From: Escherichia coli | GTDB taxonomy: Bacteria; Pseudomonadota; Gammaproteobacteria; Enterobacterales; Enterobacteriaceae | Assembly: GCF_003790525.1 (NCBI RefSeq) | Contig: NZ_CP033635.1 | Length of the DNA: 64,000 nucleotides | Reading direction: 5' to 3' (one strand) | Part shown: positions 6,314-48,988 of the stretch, in pieces | Numbering within the stretch: the first letter of the stretch is position 1 | Layout: every line of letters starts with the position of its first letter | The notes under the pieces: generated by a model | What the model was told of the DNA's origin: nothing | What the model saw: the letters and a program-made list of their open reading frames with translations, nothing else | Databases searched by the model: none | Made by a program: the position numbers and the translations under genes

Positions 6314-8102
6314 AGACTGTCTCATAATCTTTGTCGAACAGGTTGGCTATTTTACCACGAACTGTCAGATGAGAGGTGACCGGATACGCAACCGCAAGAT
6401 CCCACAAGCTCACACCGCCCATTTTAACGGTTTGATAAGGATAAGATGAGTAATCCTTATCATAGCGAGTGCCTAAATACTGATAAGTAATACCCCAGTC
6501 GAAGTCATACAATTGCCAGTCGAGCTGGTATTTCACCTGCTGTTTAGCACGGCGTAACAACGGCACGTCGGTAATCGCATTACGCGCATCGACATAATCA
6601 TAACTCACAGTATGCGTCAGTGGTCCGGTATCAAAATTGGCGGTCGCCTCGACCCCCTTAATCCGCGCTTTCCCTTCGTTGTAATATTTCAGGGTGTGAT
6701 CATCATAATCGATCAAATCACTGACATCGTTACGATATCCGGAAATACGCCAGTTCACCCCAGCGGTTAAGCCTTCAAACGCGCCTTCCCACTGTTTGCT
6801 TTTCTCAGGATTCAGATTCGGATTTCCGTAGAAACCATACAGTTGCCCAAGATTAGGTGCCTTGTACGACGTGCCATAAGAAGCGATAAAACGATAGCCT
6901 TCGATGAATTCCCAACCGGCACTCGTTTGCCAGGTTCCATGACGACCAAACTGTGAGTTATCGTCGCTGCGGGCTGCGCCTTCAAATGTAAAATCGCCGA
7001 CTTGTTGCAATCCGGTCAGATAGATACCAGTGTTACGTTGATCATACCCATCCTCAACATAACCAGTACCCGGCGTCGTAGTCTGTTTCTGCCAGTCAAC
7101 GCCCGCACCAATATTACCGTGGCCAACGGTAACGTTATTTGCCCACTGGACGGTGTACTGCTTCATCTCATCCAGCGTCGCGGACGAATCATAACGACCA
7201 TAATGGGGATCGTAGTTGTAATCTTTGCTATGGCTATAGCTGGTAATGAGTTGTGATTTAATCAGTTCACCGTTATAGCGCAGCCCGGCGTCCCAACTTT
7301 GGCTATAGAGTTTACGGGTATCGAGCAACGGTGAGCCGGGAGAATAATACGCGTCATAATTGGTACGGTTATCATAGCCATAGCCGCGCACAAAGCCGCT
7401 CCAGGCATCAGTAAAGTTATGCTCCAGCGCGCCATAAAGCGTTTTACTTAAAAAACCATCGTTATCTGTCTGCGCTTGCGTTCCGGTATTACCATAGGCA
7501 ACAACATCATAACCATGAGTATGGGCATAATCGCCCAACAGCGTTACCCGTGTCTTATCCCCCAGTTGTTGCTGCGTGGAGACATCATAGTTCTGATAAC
7601 TATTGCTTCCCCACCCTGCTGAAATTTCCGTTCCGGGTTCATCGCGCGTCGTGATGATATTCACCACCCCGCCTATTGCATCGGAACCATAAACAGCGGA
7701 GCGCGGTCCACGGATATATTCAATACGCTGGACAAGCGCAATAGGGAACTGGCTAAGGTCGGCAGAACCACTCACTCCCGCCAGATTCAGGCGGACGCCA
7801 TCAATTAACACCAGCACATGACTGGCATTTGTACCGCGAATAAAAATAGATGAGAGCTGACCTGAACCGCCGTTTTGGGTGATATCGACGCCCGGAAGAC
7901 GGCGCAGCACATCATTGACCGAGGTCGACTGCCAGCGGTCGATATCCTGACGGGTCACAACGGTGGTTGGTGCAAGCACAGTGCTGCGCGGCTGTTCAAA
8001 ACGGTTAGCAGTAACGACGAGAGTATCCGGGCTGGTATCCTGTGCCCAAGCAGAAAAGGCTGTGACAGAACACGCCGTCAGCAGCGAAGCTTTTTTAATC
8101 AT
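6258..8102 (-). CDS. btuB: TonB-dependent vitamin B12 outer-membrane transporter
   Basis: ORF 6258..8147; product from [38 protein letters not shown] (614 aa), C-terminal F typical of a beta-barrel. The 3' end overlaps murI by 56 nt. Confidence 0.95.
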
Positions 8103-8342
8103 TGTAAAGCATCCACAATAGAAGAAGGATGCCGCAGGTTTCATCAATATTACGCGATGATGAGAACCAGATGCGACGTTAGCCGGCAGGTCTTCGGGCT
8201 TGGAGGGGTATCTAAGATACTAAGAGATGATGACTTCCCACCGGATGGCAGTGTCCGCATAACGCAATCATCGCACCTTTCCTTACCGCTGCGCGTCAGC
8301 TCCAGATTCGCACTGGATTCCCTATTAACTCACAGGACCGGC
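8103..8342 (-). promoter_or_regulatory. btuB 5' leader containing the cobalamin (B12) riboswitch
   Basis: Minus-strand leader gccggtcctgtgagttaatagggaatccagtgcgaatctggagctgacgcgcagcggtaagg... matches the recalled btuB leader upstream of the btuB start. Confidence 0.8.
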
Positions 8343-37599: not shown

Positions 37600-37873
37600 T
37601 TATAATTGAATTAATCCACGGATGCGATAGTTGAGATCTTACATATTGTTGGTTAAAGAGATGTAGATCAAATTGATCGTAATTAAGCTTTTTTGATTAT
37701 GTCCGAATTCGGACAAATGCTTTATAAAAAAGGATTTTAGCTTCATATCCTTCAAGTAATGAGGGAGAAAACAAGGCTGACAACCTTATTTTCCCGCCCT
37801 CATTTCGAGGCAGCATTTTGTGCTCTGTTTAAAATTTGTGATCACTGTGTGATTTTCACAAAAGCCACACTAT

Positions 37874-38767
<894 letters not shown>

Positions 38768-38804
38768 TTACCTCATCAATCGCTTGTAGTTATATGTTGT
38801 GTTG

Positions 38805-38838
38805 TGAACATCTATCCATTTAGACGTCCAGATGTAAA
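38805..38838. promoter_or_regulatory. MetJ operator (tandem met boxes) upstream of metF
   Basis: Consecutive 8-bp repeats resembling AGACGTCT (tagacgtc cagatgta ...) 40-75 nt upstream of the metF start. Confidence 0.7.
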
Positions 38839-39145
38839 GATGAAGGAAAAGCCGAGGGGCGTCAACCGAAAAATGACCAATGATGGTGAGGAAAAATCAG
38901 GGAAGTTGAAAAAAACTCATCTTAATTAGAGGCGATAAAAGATTTCTCTATAGCGCAATCCACCTCGCACGTTTTGACTGATATTCTGACAACACAGCGA
39001 CACCTGGGCTTATTCGAAAAACAACGTCCTGCCACCGGATGGTGATGCTAAGGCATCTGATTCGGCCTGCGCCCTCGCGTAGGCCGAATACTGGATCTGC
39101 AAAATCAACTGGTAACAAACAGATGAATCAACTCAATACGTACTT

Positions 39146-40705
39146 TTACTTGATATCTTTCACGCGCATACCGTTGATCTGTTCATCCGTGATGGTGTTA
39201 CCCGCTTTGAAGTAATCAACCACGGCGTGATAAACGTAATAACCGCCCGTTGTGTTACGCGCTTTCCCTTCGGTAAAGGCGGTAAAACCATCTCCACCAT
39301 CAGCAAGGAAACTCTGAGTAGCAATGTGGTAAATCGTCGCATCTTCAATGGGTTTGCCATTCAGAGTCAGCGTGATTACCCGCTGACCAACCGGCTTACT
39401 GCTGTCGTACTTCATTTCCAGGCCTTTCGATACCTGTAAAACGCCATTACTCAAACTTGCGCCGTGTTCCATCAAACTGCGTAATTGTTTACCCGTGAGA
39501 TCCATCGTCACCAGTTCGTTGGGGAACGGGAAGGTACTGATGACGCCACCCATCGTAATTGCACCCGCCGGGATCTCATTGCGAATCCCGCCAGAGTTGG
39601 TTAACGCCAACTGGGTATTTTTACCCGCCGCTGCCAGCAAAGCGTCTGCCGCCAGGTTCCCGAGAGAAGCTGATTCACCATAGGCACGTTTTAGTTCAAC
39701 CGGCGATTGCGCCACCGTTTGTTGCACGACTTCATCCAGCTTTTTGTTCCAACTATCAATCACCTGTTTCGTTTGCGGATCGGGCTTCCACTCATCGGCG
39801 TAAAGGGTTTTAAGCTCGAAGTTTTTCACCGTAAAAGTGTGCGGCTTCTCTTTGTAGTCGAGAACCAGTTTACCGACATCAATCCCGCCGCTGTCAGTGG
39901 AGAGGATTAACGTATTGCCGACTTTAATCGGTTCCGGCGTACCCACATGTGCATGCCCGGTGATCAAAATATCCAACCCTTTCACCTGACTTGCCGTCTG
40001 AATATCTTTATCCAGTGCGCGACGCACATCCGTGCCTCCCATACTGGACTGGCGGGCCGGAACACCTTCGTGGATCAGGGCGACGGTTAGATCAACCTTG
40101 CCTTTGAGTTCATCGATATAACGTTGTAGCCATTTAATTTCATCACGCGCCTCAATACCCACTCGCGTTGCCGCAGATACCGTATCATTAAAGGCAAATA
40201 CACCGTGCAAACCAATCACGCCAATTTTCACGCCGTCTTTTTCAATGATGGTATAGGGCTTATCCCAGAATGATTTACTGCTGTTCTGATAAAAAACATT
40301 ACCCTGCACAATCGGGAATTTTGCCTGACTCAACTGTAATAACGTATTGTCCCAGCCGTGATCAAATTCATGATTACCTATAGTGACCGCATCGAATGGC
40401 ATGGTATTCATAATATCGATAATCGCCTTGCCTTTAGTCAGGCTGCTGATATACGGTCCGGTAAAATAGTCACCCGCATCAAAAAACCAGGTCGCTTTGT
40501 TTTTAGCTTTTTCTTGTTTAACAAGCGTAGTGATATTTGCCCAGCCGCCAATATCCCGTTTACCGTCAGCAATCCACGGCACTTTATAAGGCTCTACATG
40601 TGCATGGAGGTCGTTGGTATAAATGATGGTGACATCTTTGGCGCAAGCCCAAAACGGCAGTGTTAATGCGATACCCGCAGCAAGCATTTTAATTTTCATA
40701 AACAA
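39146..40705 (-). CDS. secreted bifunctional metallophosphatase / 5'-nucleotidase (UshA/CpdB family), paralogue 1
   Basis: 519-aa ORF with N-terminal signal peptide, calcineurin-like motifs ([23 protein letters not shown]) and a C-terminal 5'-nucleotidase-type domain. Absent from this position in K-12 as I recall it. Confidence 0.85.
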
Positions 40706-40831
40706 TCCCTTCCAGTGAGATAAAGGATTGCTACATTACGTTCTGAAAGGCTTTTTTATGTGAGAATACTCACATCCAGAGGCGATAACTGTAGGACAAA
40801 ATCAACGACCTTATGAAATCGTTGGTGATAT

Positions 40832-41959
40832 ATGTCAAATCTGTTTGCGATTAATGTCTGTAAAACGTTCGGTTGTCGAAATTTGGGATTGGCCTCATCG
40901 GAAGATTACAGTTGGCCAGACTATAAACTGGGTTTTCCGGCACTGCACTGCCAGGCATGCGGAAGTTACCCCCCTTTGTTTGATGAACAACAATTTCGTG
41001 ACTGGTTGTCAGTTCACATGACTGCGTGTGCCATAGAAACAGGGCATTTTTGTCCATCATGCTATTGTAAAGAAAAGATTTTTTATGGCCACAACCCGCA
41101 GGGAACACAACGCGTTCAATGCCGTTCATGCAAAAAAGTCTGGACTCCGAAACAGCAGCCAGCAAGAGAAATTACGTATCCCCAGTCCATTGAAACCGTT
41201 CAACTGTTCATGCCCTTTCAAGGAGCCAGCGCAGTACAAAAGCTCTATGTTTTAGTCAGTCTTGACGCCACTCGTGGCAACATCCTTCATCTCTCCACGA
41301 ATTATACGCAACATCAGACAGGAGACAGTCTGCGGTACAGTTACAGAGGCAATACAGAACCAACTGAGCACCATAGCGATATTGTGCAGAGGGTAGATAT
41401 GCGTGAAGCGCAATTCTTGCGCCGGAGCCAGTTCGATGAAATTCAGTATGGCAGTGCTGTGCTCAAGCGCAACGGCAAGGGAGCCATACTACGCCCGGTT
41501 ATCACGGCACACGGGCATTTCAGAATACTGAAAATCCGCTTTCCACATGTCAAAACGCATATCATTTCACACGAATGTTTTCTGAGAGGCGCAATTATTA
41601 CAGCCTGGGCAGATCAGTTCCGCCAACAACAAGGCGAACTTTGGTTCGTAGAAGAAGAAATCAGCGACCGTAACGCTGATATTCCCTGGCATTTTCAGGG
41701 AACGACATACCATGGTTGGTGGCAAAATCAGTGGCAACGCTGGGGGCAGGGGAATAACAGCAAGATGGTCTGCCTGCTCACAGGAGTCTCCTTAGAAAGG
41801 GGCGCAAATGTTTCTCTGGCAACCAGTCGTTGCTTTATCACATGGCTGACAGACCAACACGACTTTACCCAAAGCGCGTTATTATCCGCAGGTCGCGTAA
41901 CGAAAATGCTGACCTCACTGGCGTTAAAATACAATGAATCGCTCACTCCATCTTGTTAG
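40832..41959 (+). CDS. hypothetical Cys-rich protein with N-terminal zinc-ribbon-like motifs
   Basis: 375-aa ORF divergent from paralogue 1; first 100 residues contain C-x4-C, C-x2-C, CPSC-x-C and C-x2-C spacings; remainder unassignable by eye. Confidence 0.55.
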   Translation: MSNLFAINVCKTFGCRNLGLASSEDYSWPDYKLGFPALHCQACGSYPPLFDEQQFRDWLSVHMTACAIETGHFCPSCYCKEKIFYGHNPQGTQRVQCRSCKKVWTPKQQPAREITYPQSIETVQLFMPFQGASAVQKLYVLVSLDATRGNILHLSTNYTQHQTGDSLRYSYRGNTEPTEHHSDIVQRVDMREAQFLRRSQFDEIQYGSAVLKRNGKGAILRPVITAHGHFRILKIRFPHVKTHIISHECFLRGAIITAWADQFRQQQGELWFVEEEISDRNADIPWHFQGTTYHGWWQNQWQRWGQGNNSKMVCLLTGVSLERGANVSLATSRCFITWLTDQHDFTQSALLSAGRVTKMLTSLALKYNESLTPSC

Positions 41960-42188
41960 TCAATACACTCGACAAACGACCATAAATTAATGGGATCACT
42001 ATTTCTCATTTAATTAAATATATGAATATATGACTGAAAAATATAATCACAGTCAATGTTTAATTAATAACATTATTTGTTACCAAGATCACATAATACT
42101 TTCCTGACCTATGCTTACATAAAAATAAGACACGGTGTTCCTTTTATTTAAATAATTCAACCAATGTAACAACCCCTATCAAGGAGGG

Positions 42189-43741
42189 ATGATGAGAACT
42201 GTATTTACGACTTTATCAGTCATATTCAGCGTGATGTTTTCTCACAGTATACTAGCTCAGGACGTTACTATTTATTATACGAATGATATTCACGCACATG
42301 TCAATCCGGCAAAAATTCCCGCTGTTGATAAGAACAGACTTGTAGGTGGTATGGCTAATATTGCAGGCATCGTTAATGAAGCGAAGAAAAAAAACAAAGA
42401 TGTCTTTTTCTTTGATGCAGGCGACTATTTTACCGGTCCGTATATCAGTACCCTGACCAAAGGTGAAGCTATTATTGATATCATGAACACCATGCCCTTT
42501 GATGCGGTGTCCGTTGGTAATCACGAGTTCGATCACGGCGTGCCCAATATGGTATCTCAGTTATCAAAAGCAAAATTCCCCATTCTGCTGGGAAATATTT
42601 ACTACACCGATACAAATAAACCAGTTTGGGATCATCCGTGGACCATTATCGAAAAAGATGGTTTAAAGATTGGTGTGATTGGATTGCATGGTGCATTCGC
42701 TTTCTATGATACAGTCGCGGCAAAAGCACGTGAAGGCGTAGAAGCCAGAGACGAAATTAAATATTTAAATAAAGCACTTGCAGAATTAAAAGGTAAAGTC
42801 GACATTACCGTTTTGCTAATTCACGAAGGTGTTCCGGCGCGTCAATCAAGCTTTGGTAGTAAAGATGTGGAGCGGCTACTACAGGCAGATATTGAGACAG
42901 CTAAAAAAGTGAATGGTGTTGATGTCTTAATTACCGGTCACGCACATGTCGGAACACCGCAACCAATAAAAGTTAATAACACATTAATTGTATCTACCGA
43001 TGCATACGGCACCGACATCGGAAAACTTGTGCTTGATTACAATCCGAAAACAAAGAAAATTGATAGTTATAATGGTGAGTTAATCACCATCTTTGCAGAT
43101 CAATTTAAACCTGACACCATCGTTAAAATACTATCGATAAATGGAGCGTAAAGCTTAACAAAATAACACAGGAAGTTGTCGGCCATTCTCCCGTAGTTTT
43201 AACACGTGAGTATGGCAGTTCTTCTTCTACCGGTAATCTTATTCTGGATGCAATGATGGAAAAAACACCTGATGCCATTGCCGGATTTCAAAATAGCGGT
43301 GGGATGCGAGCTGATTTTCCTAAAGGTGATATCACACTGGGAGATGTTATTAGCACATTCCCCTTTAATAATGACCTCATCGAGATGGATTTGACGGGCC
43401 GCGATCTCAAATCGTTGATGACGCATGCAACCAATCTAACTAACGGTGTGTTACAGGTTTCAAAAAGCGTTGCGGTTGTCTATGACAGCAAAAAACCACT
43501 CAACCAACGGTTAATCTCTTTCACCATTAACGGCAAACCCGTGGAAGATAATCAAACATATCGTATTGCCACGCACTCCTTTTGTGCCAGTGGTGGTGAC
43601 GGTTTTGAAGCATTTTTGAATGGAAAAAATGTGAAGACGATACCGGGAACAACCTCGGCGGAATCTATCATCGATTATTTCAAAAATCATAAACCTGTCA
43701 CCCCAGACTTAACTAAACGAGTCATGGACGTCGCCAAATAA
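42189..43741 (+). pseudogene. frameshifted UshA-family 5'-nucleotidase, paralogue 2
   Basis: ORF 42189..43151 (320 aa; signal peptide and metallophosphatase motifs) stops at taa 43149-43151; homology to paralogues 1 and 3 continues in the +2 frame from about 43127 through ORF 43253..43741. The frame break lies near 43128-43140. Confidence 0.75.
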
Positions 43742-43775
43742 AATATCATTTATCAGTCTATATATTTAACAAGGA

Positions 43776-45401
43776 ATGCGAATGAAAACAGTGCAGCGTA
43801 CTTTACTTGCCGCAACATTGCTGACTATTTTTTCGGTCTCAGTCATGGCGCAGGATGTCACGATTATTTATACAAATGATCTTCACGCTCATGTGGATTC
43901 TTATAAAGTGCCGTATATCGCAGACGGAAAACGCGACATTGGCGGCTTTGCCAATATATCTACTTTAGTAAAACAGGAGAAAGCGAAAAATAAAGCCACC
44001 TTTTATTTTGATGCTGGAGACTATTTCACCGGCCCTTATATCAGCAGTCTGACAAAGGGCGAAGCAATAATTGACATTATGAATACCATGCCTTTTGACG
44101 CAGTATCAATCGGTAATCATGAGTTTGACCATGGCTGGGATAATGCCCTGCGACAATTAAGCAAAGCGAATTTTCCTGTTTTATTGGGCAATGTTTATCA
44201 TAAAGAGAGTGAGAACCCCTTCTGGAACAAGCCCTACACCATCCTGGAAAAAGATGGCATCAAGATTGGTATTATTGGGCTACACGGCGTATTTGCATTT
44301 AATGATACGGTCTCGGAGCTCTCTCTCCAGGGACTCGATAATGACAATAATAACCGCTTTGATAAATCTTCCGAGACCCTTAAGAATCAGGGGATTGAAG
44401 CACGTGATGAAGTGAAGTATTTGCAGCATTATATCGACGAGTTACGTGATAAGGTTGACCTCACTGTGGCGCTGGTTCATGAAGGCGTTCCGGCGCGTCA
44501 GTCCAGCATTGGCAATACAGATGTTAGACGCGCTCTTGATAAAGATATTCAAACCGCTAGCAAGGTGAAAGGATTGGATATTCTGATTACCGGGCATGCC
44601 CACGTCGGAACGCCAGAACCAATCAAAGTCGGCAACACCTTAATCCTTTCAACTGATAGTGGAGGTATCGATATTGGTAAATTAGTCCTTGATGTCAACC
44701 CTACAGCTCGTACCCATAAAATGAAGAGCTTTGAGCTGAAAACAGTTTATGCCGATGAATGGATACCCGATCCAACGACACAAAAAGTTATCAATGGCTG
44801 GAATAAAAAACTGGCGGATATTGTACGCCAACCAGTGGGTGAATCATCGATTGCATTAACTCGCGCCTATGGTGAGTCATCGCAACTAGGCAACCTGTTT
44901 ACCGATGCAATGCTTGTCGCTGCTCCGACTGCACAGATTGCATTGATAAACTCCGGCAGCTTACGTGCGGATATAAATGCAGGCACGATTACCTTTGGCG
45001 ACATTACCAGTACATTCCCCTTCAAGAATGAACTTACTGAAATGGATCTCAGCGGTAAGGATCTGCGTAACCTACTGGAACACGGGGCATCGCTTACCAA
45101 TGGCATCCTGCAAATGTCAAAAGGCGCAGAAATGCGCTATACCCCGCAGAAACCAGTAGGTCAGCGCATAGTATCTTTTAAAATTAATGGTGAAGAGATC
45201 GTTGATACGAATATTTACCATGTTGCAACAACGACTTTCCTTGCACTGGGGGGCGATGGTTTTCTGGCATTCAAAGAAGGGAAAAATGTTCAGGTCCGCG
45301 CCGGAAATAACATGTCCGATGTCGTGATCGATTATTTGAAGAAAGGCCACAAGATTACGCCTGCACAGGTAAATGAAATGCGGGTGGACGTTAGCAAATA
45401 A
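43776..45401 (+). CDS. secreted bifunctional metallophosphatase / 5'-nucleotidase (UshA/CpdB family), paralogue 3
   Basis: 541-aa ORF; signal peptide (…SVMAQD), NDLHAH / GDYFTG / GNHEFDHG motifs; closely similar to paralogue 1 apart from a ~20-aa insertion. Confidence 0.85.
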   Translation: MRMKTVQRTLLAATLLTIFSVSVMAQDVTIIYTNDLHAHVDSYKVPYIADGKRDIGGFANISTLVKQEKAKNKATFYFDAGDYFTGPYISSLTKGEAIIDIMNTMPFDAVSIGNHEFDHGWDNALRQLSKANFPVLLGNVYHKESENPFWNKPYTILEKDGIKIGIIGLHGVFAFNDTVSELSLQGLDNDNNNRFDKSSETLKNQGIEARDEVKYLQHYIDELRDKVDLTVALVHEGVPARQSSIGNTDVRRALDKDIQTASKVKGLDILITGHAHVGTPEPIKVGNTLILSTDSGGIDIGKLVLDVNPTARTHKMKSFELKTVYADEWIPDPTTQKVINGWNKKLADIVRQPVGESSIALTRAYGESSQLGNLFTDAMLVAAPTAQIALINSGSLRADINAGTITFGDITSTFPFKNELTEMDLSGKDLRNLLEHGASLTNGILQMSKGAEMRYTPQKPVGQRIVSFKINGEEIVDTNIYHVATTTFLALGGDGFLAFKEGKNVQVRAGNNMSDVVIDYLKKGHKITPAQVNEMRVDVSK

Positions 45402-45413
45402 TAAAAAAATTAT

Positions 45414-45447
45414 AATGCCATTCATTCACTGAATGGCATTATTTTCT
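45414..45447 (+). terminator. intrinsic terminator after paralogue 3
   Basis: Hairpin aatgccattca ... tgaatggcatt followed by attttc. Confidence 0.65.
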
Positions 45448-45478
45448 CTAAATCAACAATAGATAATGAGATATATTT

Positions 45479-46339
45479 ATGTGTATAAAAAAGCACGGGA
45501 TAGCTTTATCGATTCTATTAATACCTTGCATTGGAAACGCTCAGGAAATTAAAAGTGAGGAAGGCTGGTTACATCAAAGCTTGAATGTCATTGGTCGCAC
45601 AGACTCTCGCTTTGGCCCAAGGCTGACTAACGACCTCTACCCTGAATATACTGTAGCAGGAAGAAAAGACTGGTTTGATTTTTATGGTTATGTTGATCTA
45701 CCAAAATTCTTTGGCGTCGGCAGTCACTATGATGTTGGGATCTGGGATGAGGGCTCACCACTATTTACGGAAATAGAACCTCGGTTTTCCATTGACAAAT
45801 TGACCGGATTAAATCTTGCGTTCGGCCCTTTTAAAGAATGGTTCATTGCAAACAACTATGTCTATGATATGGGTGACAACCAGTCATCCCGGCAAAGTAC
45901 ATGGTATATGGGGCTTGGTACAGATATCGACACGGGTCTACCAATTAAGCTTTCTGCCAATATATACGCCAAGTATCAGTGGCAAAACTATGGTGCCGCT
46001 AATGAAAATGAATGGGACGGATATCGATTCAAAATAAAATATAGCATTCCTCTTACCCATTTATTCGGAGGGCGATTGGTATACAATAGTTTTACTAACT
46101 TTGATTTTGGCTCCGATCTTGCGGACAAATCACACAATAATAAACGAACCAGTAATGCTATTGCTTCAAGCCATATCCTTTCCCTGCTATATGAACACTG
46201 GAAATTTGCATTTACACTACGTTATTTTCACAACGGTGGACAATGGAATGCTGGGGAGAAAGTTAACTTCGGAGATGGTCCATTTGAATTAAAAAACACA
46301 GGATGGGGAACCTATACTACTATTGGTTATCAATTTTAA
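45479..46339 (+). CDS. Tsx-family nucleoside-specific outer-membrane channel
   Basis: 286-aa ORF with signal peptide; strong similarity to E. coli Tsx ([69 protein letters not shown]-terminal ...GYQF). Confidence 0.88.
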
Positions 46340-46518
46340 ATCAGGTGATGTTTTAGATATTTTTACTTAATGCCATTTTGTAATTGTCATAAATAACTTC
46401 ACCATTCACACTGTGAATTCATCGCTCAACACAAAAGCCCCCTTATTACCGGGGCACTGACCAAAGGCAAAATGACAATCAATCACCACCTCCGCAGGAG
46501 GTGGTTTAGAGGTGACAA

Positions 46519-46548
46519 CAAAAGCTGGCAACTGCCAGCTTTTGTTCA
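46519..46548. terminator. bidirectional intrinsic terminator between the Tsx-like gene and metL
   Basis: Inverted repeat caaaagctggca / tgccagcttttg flanked by A/T runs on both strands. Confidence 0.7.
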
Positions 46549-46555
46549 ATAATCA

Positions 46556-48988
46556 CTACAACAACTGCGCCAGACGGTTAATATCCGACTGAATCGCCCC
46601 GGCGGTGACATCGCGCCCTGCACCTGGCCCGCGGATCACCAGCGGGTTGTCGCGATACCAGCGGCTTTCGATGGCAAAGACGTTATCGCACGGTAGTAGT
46701 GATGCCAGCGGATGGTCTTCTCGCACCGCTTCCACGCCTACTCGCGCTTTGCCGTTGGCATCGAAACGCGCCACGTAGCGCAACACCAGCCCCATTTCAC
46801 GGGCCGCTTCCAACCGTTGTACCATCTGCTCATTAAGTTCATCGCCATTTTCAAAGAAATGGTCGATGCTTCCACCTTCGCAATGGGTTGGCACCAGTGA
46901 TTCAACACGCACCTGGTCCGGTTCAATGTTGTAACCCGCTTCACGCGCCAGAATCACCAGCTTGCGCATCACGTCTTTGCCGGAAAGGTCATCACGCGGA
47001 TCAGGCTCGGTTAAGCCCTGCTGCCACGCCTGATCCACCAGCTCGGTAAACGGCACGCTACCGTCGAATTGCAGGAACAGCCAGGAGAGCGTGCCAGAGA
47101 AGATCCCACTGATCGACAAAATGGTATCGCCGCTGTCGATCAGATCGCGCACGGTATGGTTGATCGGCAAACCCGCACCGACAGTGGCATTGTACAGCCA
47201 GTGACGCCCGGTTTTTTCGAAGGCGTCGTGGATCTGGCGATATTTATTGCTGTCGCTGGCTCCCGCCAGTTTGTTGGCGCTGATGACGTGGAAACCGTGG
47301 CTGGCAAAATCGAGATACTGATCAGCAAGCTGCTGGCTGGCGGTAACGTCCAGCACCACTAAATCATCATACGGATGGGCGCGCATCCACAGGAACAGCG
47401 ACTCTTCATCCTGCTCGACCGCTTCATCGTTGAAGAAGGCTAACGCGCGGCTGGCGTCCAGCCCGTCATAGCTCAACAGGCTGCGGCGGCTGTCCACCAC
47501 GCCTGCCAGCACAAATTCAAAGCCGGTACGCGCCGAAAGCGTGCTCTGCTCACGGGCGAACAGTTCCAGCCAGCGGGAACCGATATTGCCCTTGCCGAAC
47601 AATACCAGGCCGATGCGTTTTTCCGCGCGAAAGACGGACTGATGCAGACCCTGAATCAGGCTTTCGGTCGGCCCGGTGCGCAGTACTGCCACCAGGCTGA
47701 TGCCGTCATCGGACTGCCAGGTAAATTCGACCGGCTGGCCTTTCAGTTGCTGCCAGAAGCGGTGGCAATGCAGCGGGTTACGGGTTACGCCCGCCCCAAC
47801 CATCGCCACCAGCGCCAGCCCCTGACGCAGGCGCAGTTCGCCAGGTAATCCCGCTTCGTCGAGAATTTTCAGCGCACTGTCAGCGACTTCTGAGGTGTAG
47901 CAAAATTGCAGCAACTGGCGATCGTTATGTACGCCAACCGCCAGTGGGCGCACCTGAGCACGTTTCAGGATCTGGTCGATCTCTTTATGCGCCAGTTTGA
48001 AATCCTGACTGGCGGGCACCTGAAACTCAATCAAACAGACATCATCGTGGCTGGTGACAATACGCGCGCCAGTACCTGAGGCCAGCACGCGTTCAATGCG
48101 CGTGGAACCTTGATCCGGCGTGTAGCTACAGCGCAGTTGCAGGTCGATTTCACTACCGGATACTGGCTGTAAAGTACGGGCGTGAAGAACGGGGGCCGCC
48201 AGACGCGCCAGTTCACTGGCTTCATCAAGACGCAGCAATGGCAGCAGACAGGCATCTTTCACTTTACGCGGGTCGGCGCTGTATACCCCGGCGACGTCGC
48301 TCCAGATGGTTACGCGAGAAACACCCGCCAGCGCACCGATTTGTGTCGCGGAATAGTCGGAACCGTTACGCCCCAGCAGCACCGTTTCACCGGCGTTGTT
48401 ACGGCTGATAAACCCGGTCACCACCAGACGTTTGCCCGGATGTTGTACCAGTAGCTGTTGCAGCAACGGGTAAGAAAGCCCTTCATCAACCTGCGGCTGC
48501 GCGGCGCGTTCAGCGCGTAAAAACTCGCGGGCATCAAGCCAGGCCGCTGGCAGCCCTTGTTGATTAAGTACCGCAGACATCAGGCGCGCCGACCACACTT
48601 CACCGTGGCCCACCACTTCTGCATACACCGCATCGTTAATACCGCTGTCGAGCAGCGCCGCCAGGCGTTCCAGATCGCTGACAAAAGCGCTAATGAGGCT
48701 ATCGGCTTCTTCAGCGGGTAGCAGGCCGCTAATCAGATCGCACTGATAACGACGTAGCGTTTGTTGAACCTGATGCGCAGAGAGACGATCGGTCTGGCTT
48801 AGTTTCAACCAGTTAATCAACTGGTTAGTGGTGCTACCGGCGGCGGAAACCACCATCATATCGTCAGGCTGAGAGTACTCCGCCATAATGCCCGCGACAC
48901 GCAAATAACACTTCACATCAGCCAGACTACTGCCACCAAATTTATGCAGTTGACGACCTTTCGCCCCTGCCTGCGCAATCACACTCAT
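46556..48988 (-). CDS. metL: bifunctional aspartokinase II / homoserine dehydrogenase II
   Basis: 810-aa ORF directly downstream of metB. Confidence 0.95.
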   Translation of the reverse strand: MSVIAQAGAKGRQLHKFGGSSLADVKCYLRVAGIMAEYSQPDDMMVVSAAGSTTNQLINWLKLSQTDRLSAHQVQQTLRRYQCDLISGLLPAEEADSLISAFVSDLERLAALLDSGINDAVYAEVVGHGEVWSARLMSAVLNQQGLPAAWLDAREFLRAERAAQPQVDEGLSYPLLQQLLVQHPGKRLVVTGFISRNNAGETVLLGRNGSDYSATQIGALAGVSRVTIWSDVAGVYSADPRKVKDACLLPLLRLDEASELARLAAPVLHARTLQPVSGSEIDLQLRCSYTPDQGSTRIERVLASGTGARIVTSHDDVCLIEFQVPASQDFKLAHKEIDQILKRAQVRPLAVGVHNDRQLLQFCYTSEVADSALKILDEAGLPGELRLRQGLALVAMVGAGVTRNPLHCHRFWQQLKGQPVEFTWQSDDGISLVAVLRTGPTESLIQGLHQSVFRAEKRIGLVLFGKGNIGSRWLELFAREQSTLSARTGFEFVLAGVVDSRRSLLSYDGLDASRALAFFNDEAVEQDEESLFLWMRAHPYDDLVVLDVTASQQLADQYLDFASHGFHVISANKLAGASDSNKYRQIHDAFEKTGRHWLYNATVGAGLPINHTVRDLIDSGDTILSISGIFSGTLSWLFLQFDGSVPFTELVDQAWQQGLTEPDPRDDLSGKDVMRKLVILAREAGYNIEPDQVRVESLVPTHCEGGSIDHFFENGDELNEQMVQRLEAAREMGLVLRYVARFDANGKARVGVEAVREDHPLASLLPCDNVFAIESRWYRDNPLVIRGPGAGRDVTAGAIQSDINRLAQLL

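Follow-up and report, generated by a model that had tools for sequence, protein, structure and literature searches.

Three diverged 5'-nucleotidase-family paralogues between metF and metL of Escherichia coli probably reached the locus by different routes

The locus described here lies in a 64,000-nucleotide stretch of Escherichia coli DNA (contig NZ_CP033635.1 of RefSeq assembly GCF_003790525.1), referred to as the window, in which the chromosomal order katG, metF, variable region, metL, metB is found. The variable region contains three paralogous genes of a periplasmic 5'-nucleotidase family (P1, P2 and P3), a cysteine-rich open reading frame (Cys-rich ORF) and a paralogue of the nucleoside channel Tsx. 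In a BLAST comparison with the K-12 locus, homology ends at 38914 and restarts at 46557, and K-12 carries in this interval 199 unrelated bp, which hold no remnants of P1 and no trace of the other genes. Among E. coli genomes, empty, short (P1 and the Cys-rich ORF only) and full states of the site are all observed. The features of the full state found in the window are as follows.

38915..46556, no strand: variable segment between metF and metL, 7.6 kb, from BLAST of the window against K-12
39146..40705, minus strand: P1, periplasmic 5'-nucleotidase family of the PDB 3IVD/3IVE type, from its match to 3IVD, synteny and codon usage (start in RefSeq at 40699)
40600..40750, no strand: left breakpoint, from sliding-window identity
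40759..40774, centre of the 126-bp divergent region between P1 and the Cys-rich ORF: CRP-consensus palindrome TGTGAGAATACTCACA, 0 mismatches
40832..41959, plus strand: Cys-rich ORF, 375 amino acids (aa)
42078..42093, AT-rich region upstream of P2: second CRP-like site TGTTACCAAGATCACA, 1 mismatch
42189..43741, plus strand: P2, second nucleotidase paralogue, frameshifted in the window by a 1-bp deletion after 43124
43776..45401, plus strand: P3, third nucleotidase paralogue, 541 aa
45479..46339, plus strand: Tsx paralogue, nucleoside-specific outer-membrane channel, from NCBIfam NF011686 and the Tsx structure 1TLW

With a probability of roughly 0.72, we regard the three nucleotidase genes as ancient paralogues that came to this locus by different routes, P1 and the Cys-rich ORF as a resident unit, and P2, P3 and the Tsx paralogue as an AT-rich accessory block. 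A preliminary description of the window had noted that P1 and P3 lie in inverted orientation about 3 kb apart and bracket the Cys-rich ORF and P2, which is confirmed by coordinates and strands, with a spacing of 3,070 bp. It had also called both proteins closely similar throughout; the homology is indeed full-length, although an identity of 66% over 529 aligned residues makes this wording generous. P2 shares 65% of its residues with P1 in the N-terminal and 53% in the C-terminal part, and 58% and 46%, respectively, with P3. As had been claimed, the copies are substantially diverged at the nucleotide level, with 67-75% identity in BLAST segments, 58-67% over codon alignments and 33-41% at third codon positions. 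The P3 lineage is further distinguished by a low-complexity insert of about 20 residues (…LSLQGLDNDNNNRFDKSSETLKN…; window 44316-44390, residues about 181-204), which is not found in the P1 and P2 lineages, and P3-type proteins measure 536-541 aa compared to 516-520 aa for the P1 and P2 types.

The best PDB match of all three copies is 3IVD, with 1114 bits for P1 (spanning residues 21-519), 763 for P3 and 629 for P2, whereas solved structures of UshA, NadN and CpdB are matched with 84-109, 97-106 and, in fragments only, 49-55 bits. The possibility raised at the outset, that the copies might resemble ushA or cpdB as much as they resemble one another, is thus contradicted (629-1114 compared to 49-109 bits). 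The Pfam domain pair PF00149 and PF02872 is precomputed on P3 proteins of 97-99% identity and on P1- and P2-type matches, and the NCBIfam matches of the three copies span both domains. In an alignment of nine sequences together with the three copies of the window, with P2 repaired, the metal-binding and catalytic motifs D-x-H, GD, GNHE-x-D, H and GH-x-H are invariant, as are the substrate motifs NSGG-R, FPF and GGDGF of the C-terminal domain, residues that we take to be equivalent to those of UshA. The scores of the three copies stay far below the family cut-offs for UshA (NF007109; 154.7, 166.4 and 154.8 bits, cut-off 600), NadN (TIGR01530; 134, 126.3 and 121.3 bits, cut-off 436) and CpdB (NF006938; 102.5, 84.1 and 100.4 bits in the N-domain only, cut-off 486), and the copies are therefore not orthologues of any of these proteins. 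By these measures they form a distinct subfamily of their own within the UshA/5'-nucleotidase superfamily. Their N-termini resemble, by eye, Sec signal peptides, and the enzymes are predicted to be secreted to the periplasm, where they would convert nucleotides to nucleosides.

The last gene of the block scores 491.8 bits against NF011686 (cut-off 311; residues 2-286) and 386 bits against 1TLW (E = 1.4e-114) over its mature length, and it is a true Tsx paralogue. The corresponding gene of strain SMS-3-5 (7481-8326 of the fetched locus) is called an incomplete pseudogene in RefSeq. Its ORF of 286 aa is full length, aligns to the end of 1TLW and shares the terminal …GYQF with the gene of ATCC 25922 that RefSeq annotates as intact.

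The preliminary description had also found P1 to be GC-richer with E. coli-like codons and P2, P3 and the Tsx paralogue to be AT-rich. This difference persists in computed GC content, in GC content at third codon positions (GC3) and in codon-usage z-scores obtained against 20 core ORFs of the window. P1 (GC 0.478, GC3 0.513) has z-scores of -0.7/-0.4 and is thus located inside the core range, with katG, metF and metL showing a GC3 of 0.59-0.64 and z-scores of +0.5 to +1.9. Outliers are the Cys-rich ORF (z -3.5; GC3 0.48), P2 (z -2.9; GC 0.407; GC3 0.35-0.43 in its two fragments), P3 (z -2.5; GC 0.443; GC3 0.439) and the Tsx paralogue (z -4.7; GC 0.401; GC3 0.359), the most AT-rich gene of the block. 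Across species, the GC3 of P1 follows that of the host (0.51-0.53 in Escherichia, 0.59-0.64 in Citrobacter and Klebsiella), whereas P2-, P3- and Tsx-type genes stay at 0.28-0.48 in all hosts of a related multi-gene cluster that is described below.

The distinct history of P1 is reflected in its synteny, which was defined by mapping marker proteins onto loci fetched across species. The order metL-Cys(-)-P1(+)-metF is found in Klebsiella oxytoca, K. pneumoniae, K. spallanzanii and eight Citrobacter genomes, and it recurs in Kosakonia, Phytobacter, Pseudocitrobacter, Kluyvera, E. whittamii and a cryptic Escherichia lineage. Salmonella enterica shows a matching order with two extra genes beside metL, and altogether P1 resides between metL and metF in at least eight genera. 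Within E. coli, P1 is present in 1,843 of the 5,426 complete genomes (34%), which leaves, by subtraction, about 3,580 with an empty site. The synteny shared across genera identifies the pair of P1 and the Cys-rich ORF as the ancestral occupant of the site and the empty state of K-12 as a loss.

A similar picture emerges from a neighbour-joining tree with corrected distances and 100 bootstraps, calculated for 65 proteins from 76 loci. The P1 clade consists of met-linked genes that cluster by genus, and it is the sister (bootstrap 100) of a P3 clade including the P3-type proteins of Citrobacter, Enterobacter and E. albertii (bootstrap 100). P2 belongs to the deepest-branching lineage outside of P1 and P3, in a clade that also holds proteins of Serratia and Providencia (bootstrap 98). 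Among the copies, the proportion of synonymous differences (pS) amounts to 0.79-0.83 and the non-synonymous divergence (dN) to 0.23-0.38; since synonymous sites are beyond saturation, the synonymous divergence (dS) is not estimable. As judged from these sequences, the duplications predate the divergence of enterobacterial genera. Both origins considered in the preliminary description are therefore in part sustained: of an old duplication with one ameliorated copy the age remains, given the pS values and the separate clades with orthologues elsewhere, and of two separate acquisitions the separate histories remain but not the acquisition of P1, which is a syntenic resident across Enterobacteriaceae.

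The P2-P3-Tsx block is present in 660 of the complete E. coli genomes (12%), leaving, by subtraction, about 1,180 genomes with the short form. Identity of the window to short-form alleles is 92-100% from metF through P1 and falls sharply near 40650 to 70-80% across the Cys-rich ORF, which defines the left breakpoint, whereas the right edge of the block coincides with the metL stop codon (46556). The full form is found in B2 and F strains, and the two full-form haplotypes differ by about 4%. E. albertii, Citrobacter spp., Enterobacter asburiae and non-coli Escherichia, hosts that also contain the met-linked pair, carry elsewhere on the chromosome a related cluster with a Cys(-) gene, a P1-type, one or two P2-types, a Tsx-type and a P3-type gene, the latter genes being co-directional. 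No complete E. coli genome has this cluster. We have considered this cluster as donor of the block and rejected it in light of its different gene order and an identity of only 57-87%, which mark it as a relative. Its Tsx paralogue is only 57-58% identical to that of the window.

These observations bear on a scenario in which a single horizontally acquired island brought in all three nucleotidase genes, with P1 alone having ameliorated. The absence of the whole segment from K-12 and about two-thirds of E. coli genomes, and the existence elsewhere of a cluster combining all three types with a Tsx gene, would be in accordance with such an event. It is nevertheless very improbable in view of the syntenic P1/Cys pair with its genus-wise clustering and of the sharp breakpoint separating P1 from the remainder, and there is no known mechanism by which neighbours of the same age would ameliorate differently. 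Moreover, neither flanking direct nor terminal inverted repeats were found around the block, and no integrase or insertion sequence (IS) among the ORFs of the window and no tRNA, so that the segment, bounded by the region upstream of metF and by the metL stop codon, does not qualify as a mobile island. A match of 11 nt that 41922-41935 shares with the site of the P2 deletion was dismissed as being within chance for 8 kb.

The direction of the event that distinguishes the short from the full form deserves closer consideration. We had initially read the short form as a deletion scar, which implies that E. coli originally possessed the full form with its five genes, that P2, P3 and the Tsx paralogue were lost rather than gained and that the compositional contrast reflects gene-specific constraints instead of residence times. 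A TACAA microhomology at both deletion end-points (41931-41935 and the metL stop) would fit this scenario, as would the Cys-rich ORF of the short form, which extends 37 bp into metL and lacks a terminator, compared to the full form with its two hairpins after metL. B2 and F are early-branching E. coli phylogroups, and with its two haplotypes differing as described the block is not recent. However, the tight junction between Cys gene and metL is common to the short form and to E. whittamii, the cryptic Escherichia lineage, Klebsiella, Kosakonia and Phytobacter, which makes it more parsimonious that the block was inserted or came in with an imported, diverged haplotype. Also, no other genus shows the full arrangement, and a Cys allele of 70-80% identity next to a P1 of 92-100% is better explained by an imported or long-isolated haplotype. 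We have thus downgraded the deletion to a rival that is unlikely, if by no means negligible, and infer insertion rather than loss.

Several points weigh against our preferred reading of a resident P1 unit next to an accessory block. The event is unproven as to its direction, with the microhomology and the hairpin terminators confined to the full form both fitting a deletion from full to short form. No locus with the gene order of the window was found in another genus among the fetched loci, nor was an outside donor of the block identified, and the block-linked Cys allele, despite its long branch, clusters within the met-linked clade of Escherichia. The Cys-rich ORF is compositionally atypical in Escherichia despite being ancestral, and atypical composition alone is therefore no proof of recent import. 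Finally, the trees were obtained by neighbour-joining and not by maximum likelihood, and the functional part of the reading is a prediction from homology and motif conservation.

In the genomic surroundings, the core flanks of the segment (37800-38914 and 46557-48857) are unusually distant from K-12, with 96.9% and 95.4% identity, and comparison of metF and P1 with other strains reveals a mosaic in which runs of 100% identity lie beside runs of 92-94%. This mosaic suggests frequent recombination around the polymorphic site. In Klebsiella, Citrobacter, E. whittamii and the cryptic Escherichia lineage, 1.5-5.6 kb of extra sequence is located between P1 and metF, and both sides of the ancestral pair thus gather cargo. 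One match in Salmonella Infantis, pCFSAN003307 (144037-159578), is filed as a 178-kb plasmid and contains metB, metL, an mscS-like gene, a hypothetical gene, the Cys ORF, P1, metF, katG and gldA. Upon inspection it is a chromosomal met-katG segment in chromosomal order, and several other supposed plasmid matches are records of chromosome size (4.9-5.4 Mb), so that there is no good evidence for plasmid carriage.

The inverted layout of the copies had raised the question of inversion or gene conversion. It manifests itself in the following arms, detected by a repeat finder, besides an inverted arm between P1 and P2 of 410 nt and 71% identity.

40176-40636 with 43854-44314: inverted arm pair of P1 and P3, 461 nt, 75% identity
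39858-40160 with 44390-44692: second inverted arm pair of P1 and P3, 303 nt, 76% identity

With arms of 300-460 nt and a DDE-fold protein encoded in between, one might envisage that the interval 40706-43775 flips or that the copies homogenise, possibly aided by the transposase-like gene. RecA-dependent exchange requires a minimum of roughly 23-27 nt. Exact matches extend to at most 17 nt between P1 and either of the other two copies and to 14 nt between P2 and P3, and arms of 71-76% identity do not constitute a recombinogenic inverted repeat. Synonymous sites are saturated, and no high-identity patches indicative of gene conversion are found among the copies. In all 658 genomes with a complete block, the 7.9-kb region aligns in one place on the same strand with a coverage of at least 80%. 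Since no more than about 61% could be covered on the same strand if 40706-43775 were inverted, none of these genomes contains an inversion isomer. Ongoing exchange is thus not supported, in line with the limit on RecA-mediated exchange that the preliminary description had expected from the divergence of the copies. The weak relationship of the Cys-rich ORF to IS1 transposases, described below, does not help this proposal either, which is already close to refuted. The block is inverted relative to P1 because it lies downstream of, and co-directional with, the Cys-rich ORF, from which P1 is divergent. The related cluster instead has its P2-, Tsx- and P3-type genes on the opposite side, where they are transcribed in the direction of its P1-type gene. 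The inverted layout is thus specific to the full form at the met locus and without evident functional meaning, a by-product of a divergent promoter architecture and not a functional inverted repeat.

This divergent architecture is centred on the palindrome TGTGAGAATACTCACA, the only perfect match to TGTGA-N6-TCACA in the 64-kb window. Its half-sites are perfect in 28 of 39 orthologous or paralogous intergenic regions and carry one mismatch in nine and two mismatches in two of them; these regions come from many genera and include ones adjoining P3-type genes, and the 6-nt spacer varies freely. Conserved half-sites around a drifting spacer would be the expected footprint of protein binding. Three other full-form alleles retain the two half-sites of TGTTACCAAGATCACA and carry one substitution in the spacer. 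From these sites, control of the genes by CRP is predicted. Promoter-like hexamers are not enriched (12 observed, 19 expected), and promoters were consequently not assigned from them.

The partner gene of P1, the Cys-rich ORF, combines two zinc-ribbon clusters of invariant cysteines with a following RNase H-like core of the DDE type. It scores 20.4 bits against the IS1 transposase family NF033558, well short of the cut-off of 100, contains no invariant aspartate, and no terminal or flanking inverted repeats were found for it. The gene is single-copy and fixed at one syntenic site across genera, and diverged versions accompany other nucleotidase lineages, adjacent to P3-types and within a few kb of some P2-types. 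It thus looks like the relic of an IS1-like transposase, possibly acting as a regulator, which behaves as a domesticated gene and not as an active element.

Collectively, these results can be arranged in a sequence of events. P1 and the divergent Cys-rich gene, with the CRP-type palindrome between them, would have formed one unit that was located between metL and metF before the enterobacterial genera split, and its long residence would explain why the composition of P1 is close to that of its host. K-12-type strains have lost this unit, whereas in a minority of E. coli lineages the AT-rich block has come to lie between the 3' end of the Cys gene and the stop codon of metL, where it is found together with a Cys allele of strong divergence and with nucleotidase copies too diverged to recombine. 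The nucleotidases would dephosphorylate nucleotides to nucleosides, the additional Tsx channel may raise nucleoside flux across the outer membrane, and expression may be tied to cyclic AMP (cAMP)-CRP as for other genes of nucleoside catabolism. A more far-reaching and rather doubtful proposal holds that nucleotidase and Cys-rich gene are a co-evolving pair, with the relic serving as DNA-binding regulator or as partner of CRP at the palindrome, and that the block confers an advantage in the host niche. If so, the relic would have been duplicated together with each nucleotidase lineage, the block, concentrated in extraintestinal B2/F lineages, might aid the scavenging of extracellular nucleotides or else generate adenosine that dampens host immune signalling, and the empty, short and full states would be kept by selection rather than drift.

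The frameshift in P2 results from one missing C (43124-43125) outside of any homopolymer run (context GTT-AAAA). The window and the RefSeq record of SMS-3-5 differ over 12.5 kb by no mismatch and one indel, and the missing base is present in SMS-3-5, STEC299, MRY15-131 and ATCC 25922. None of the 646 complete E. coli genomes carrying the segment is matched perfectly by a 60-nt probe across the deletion, the best identity of 98.4% corresponding to one gap, and P2 is intact with 516 aa in all other genomes examined. The frameshifted copy of the preliminary description is therefore real in the window and at the same time a single missing base that is private to it, either an error or a very recent mutation, which should not be propagated in annotation.

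Further features concern the ends of transcription units in the block.

45412..45442: hairpin separating P3 from the Tsx paralogue, stem of 13 bp, terminator-like on both strands
46485-46505 and 46517-46546, no strand: two hairpins in the convergent gap between the Tsx paralogue and metL

In light of the first hairpin, the Tsx gene may be transcribed separately or be subject to attenuation.

Our study has implications for the annotation of these genes, which treats P1, P2 and P3 as identical 'bifunctional metallophosphatase/5'-nucleotidase' genes. As three distinct old lineages they likely differ in substrate, and P1 is an ancestral gene that was lost elsewhere rather than an island gene. The Cys-rich ORF, annotated as 'cytoplasmic protein', has a transposase fold, and the conservation of the CRP-type palindrome across genera provides a testable regulatory hypothesis. 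In other respects the region is ordinary; its history accounts in a simple way for layout and composition, and nothing points to a switch or to ongoing conversion.

When compared to known systems, the Cys-rich ORF shares with IS1 transposases, which combine an InsA zinc ribbon with a DDE core, a CxxC zinc ribbon at the N-terminus, which gives weak InsA/IS1 matches, as well as the fold of the RNase H-like catalytic core, and its remote relatives in AFDB are annotated as IS1-family transposases; it differs in its score below the cut-off, the lack of inverted repeats and of an invariant aspartate and its single syntenic copy. With UshA, NadN and CpdB, the nucleotidases have in common the superfamily, the catalytic motifs and an N-terminal leader of the secretion type, whereas they remain well under the respective family cut-offs (155-166, 121-134 and 84-102 bits). 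Their closest structural counterpart is 3IVD/3IVE, which we take to be the structural-genomics target c4898 of E. coli CFT073, whose structure contains bound uridine and cytidine. P1 corresponds essentially to this protein and P3 and P2 are its paralogues, all with the two-domain architecture of a metallophosphatase followed by a 5'-nucleotidase C-terminal domain; the structure represents the P1 type only and lacks the extra insert of about 20 aa seen in P3. A literature search retrieved no publication on the activity of this nucleotidase (c4898). The island gene passes the family cut-off for Tsx (1TLW/1TLY) and aligns along the whole mature protein, being a second, diverged and AT-rich copy that is linked to nucleotidase genes. 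A 2026 paper describes, in the passages relevant here, an island GR31 (metL..metF) in the avian pathogenic E. coli (APEC) strain BEN2908 and other extraintestinal pathogenic E. coli (ExPEC) strains, with three UshA-domain ORFs of 1620, 1551 and 1554 bp and a Tsx-like ORF of 67% to Tsx, for which its authors propose a coordinated system of nucleoside processing and transport/uptake (PMC12928451). GR31 is the same island as that of the window, and with its publication and a structure of P1 that has been deposited for years, the region is already known. The same passages do not distinguish an ancestral unit from a block and mention neither the fold of the Cys gene nor the CRP site (PMC12928451). 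Beyond this description, our work separates the ancestral unit from the accessory block, shows the paralogy to be old, finds no inversion isomer among the genomes compared, recognises the frameshift as private to the window, and describes the CRP-type palindrome as well as the fold encoded by the partner gene.

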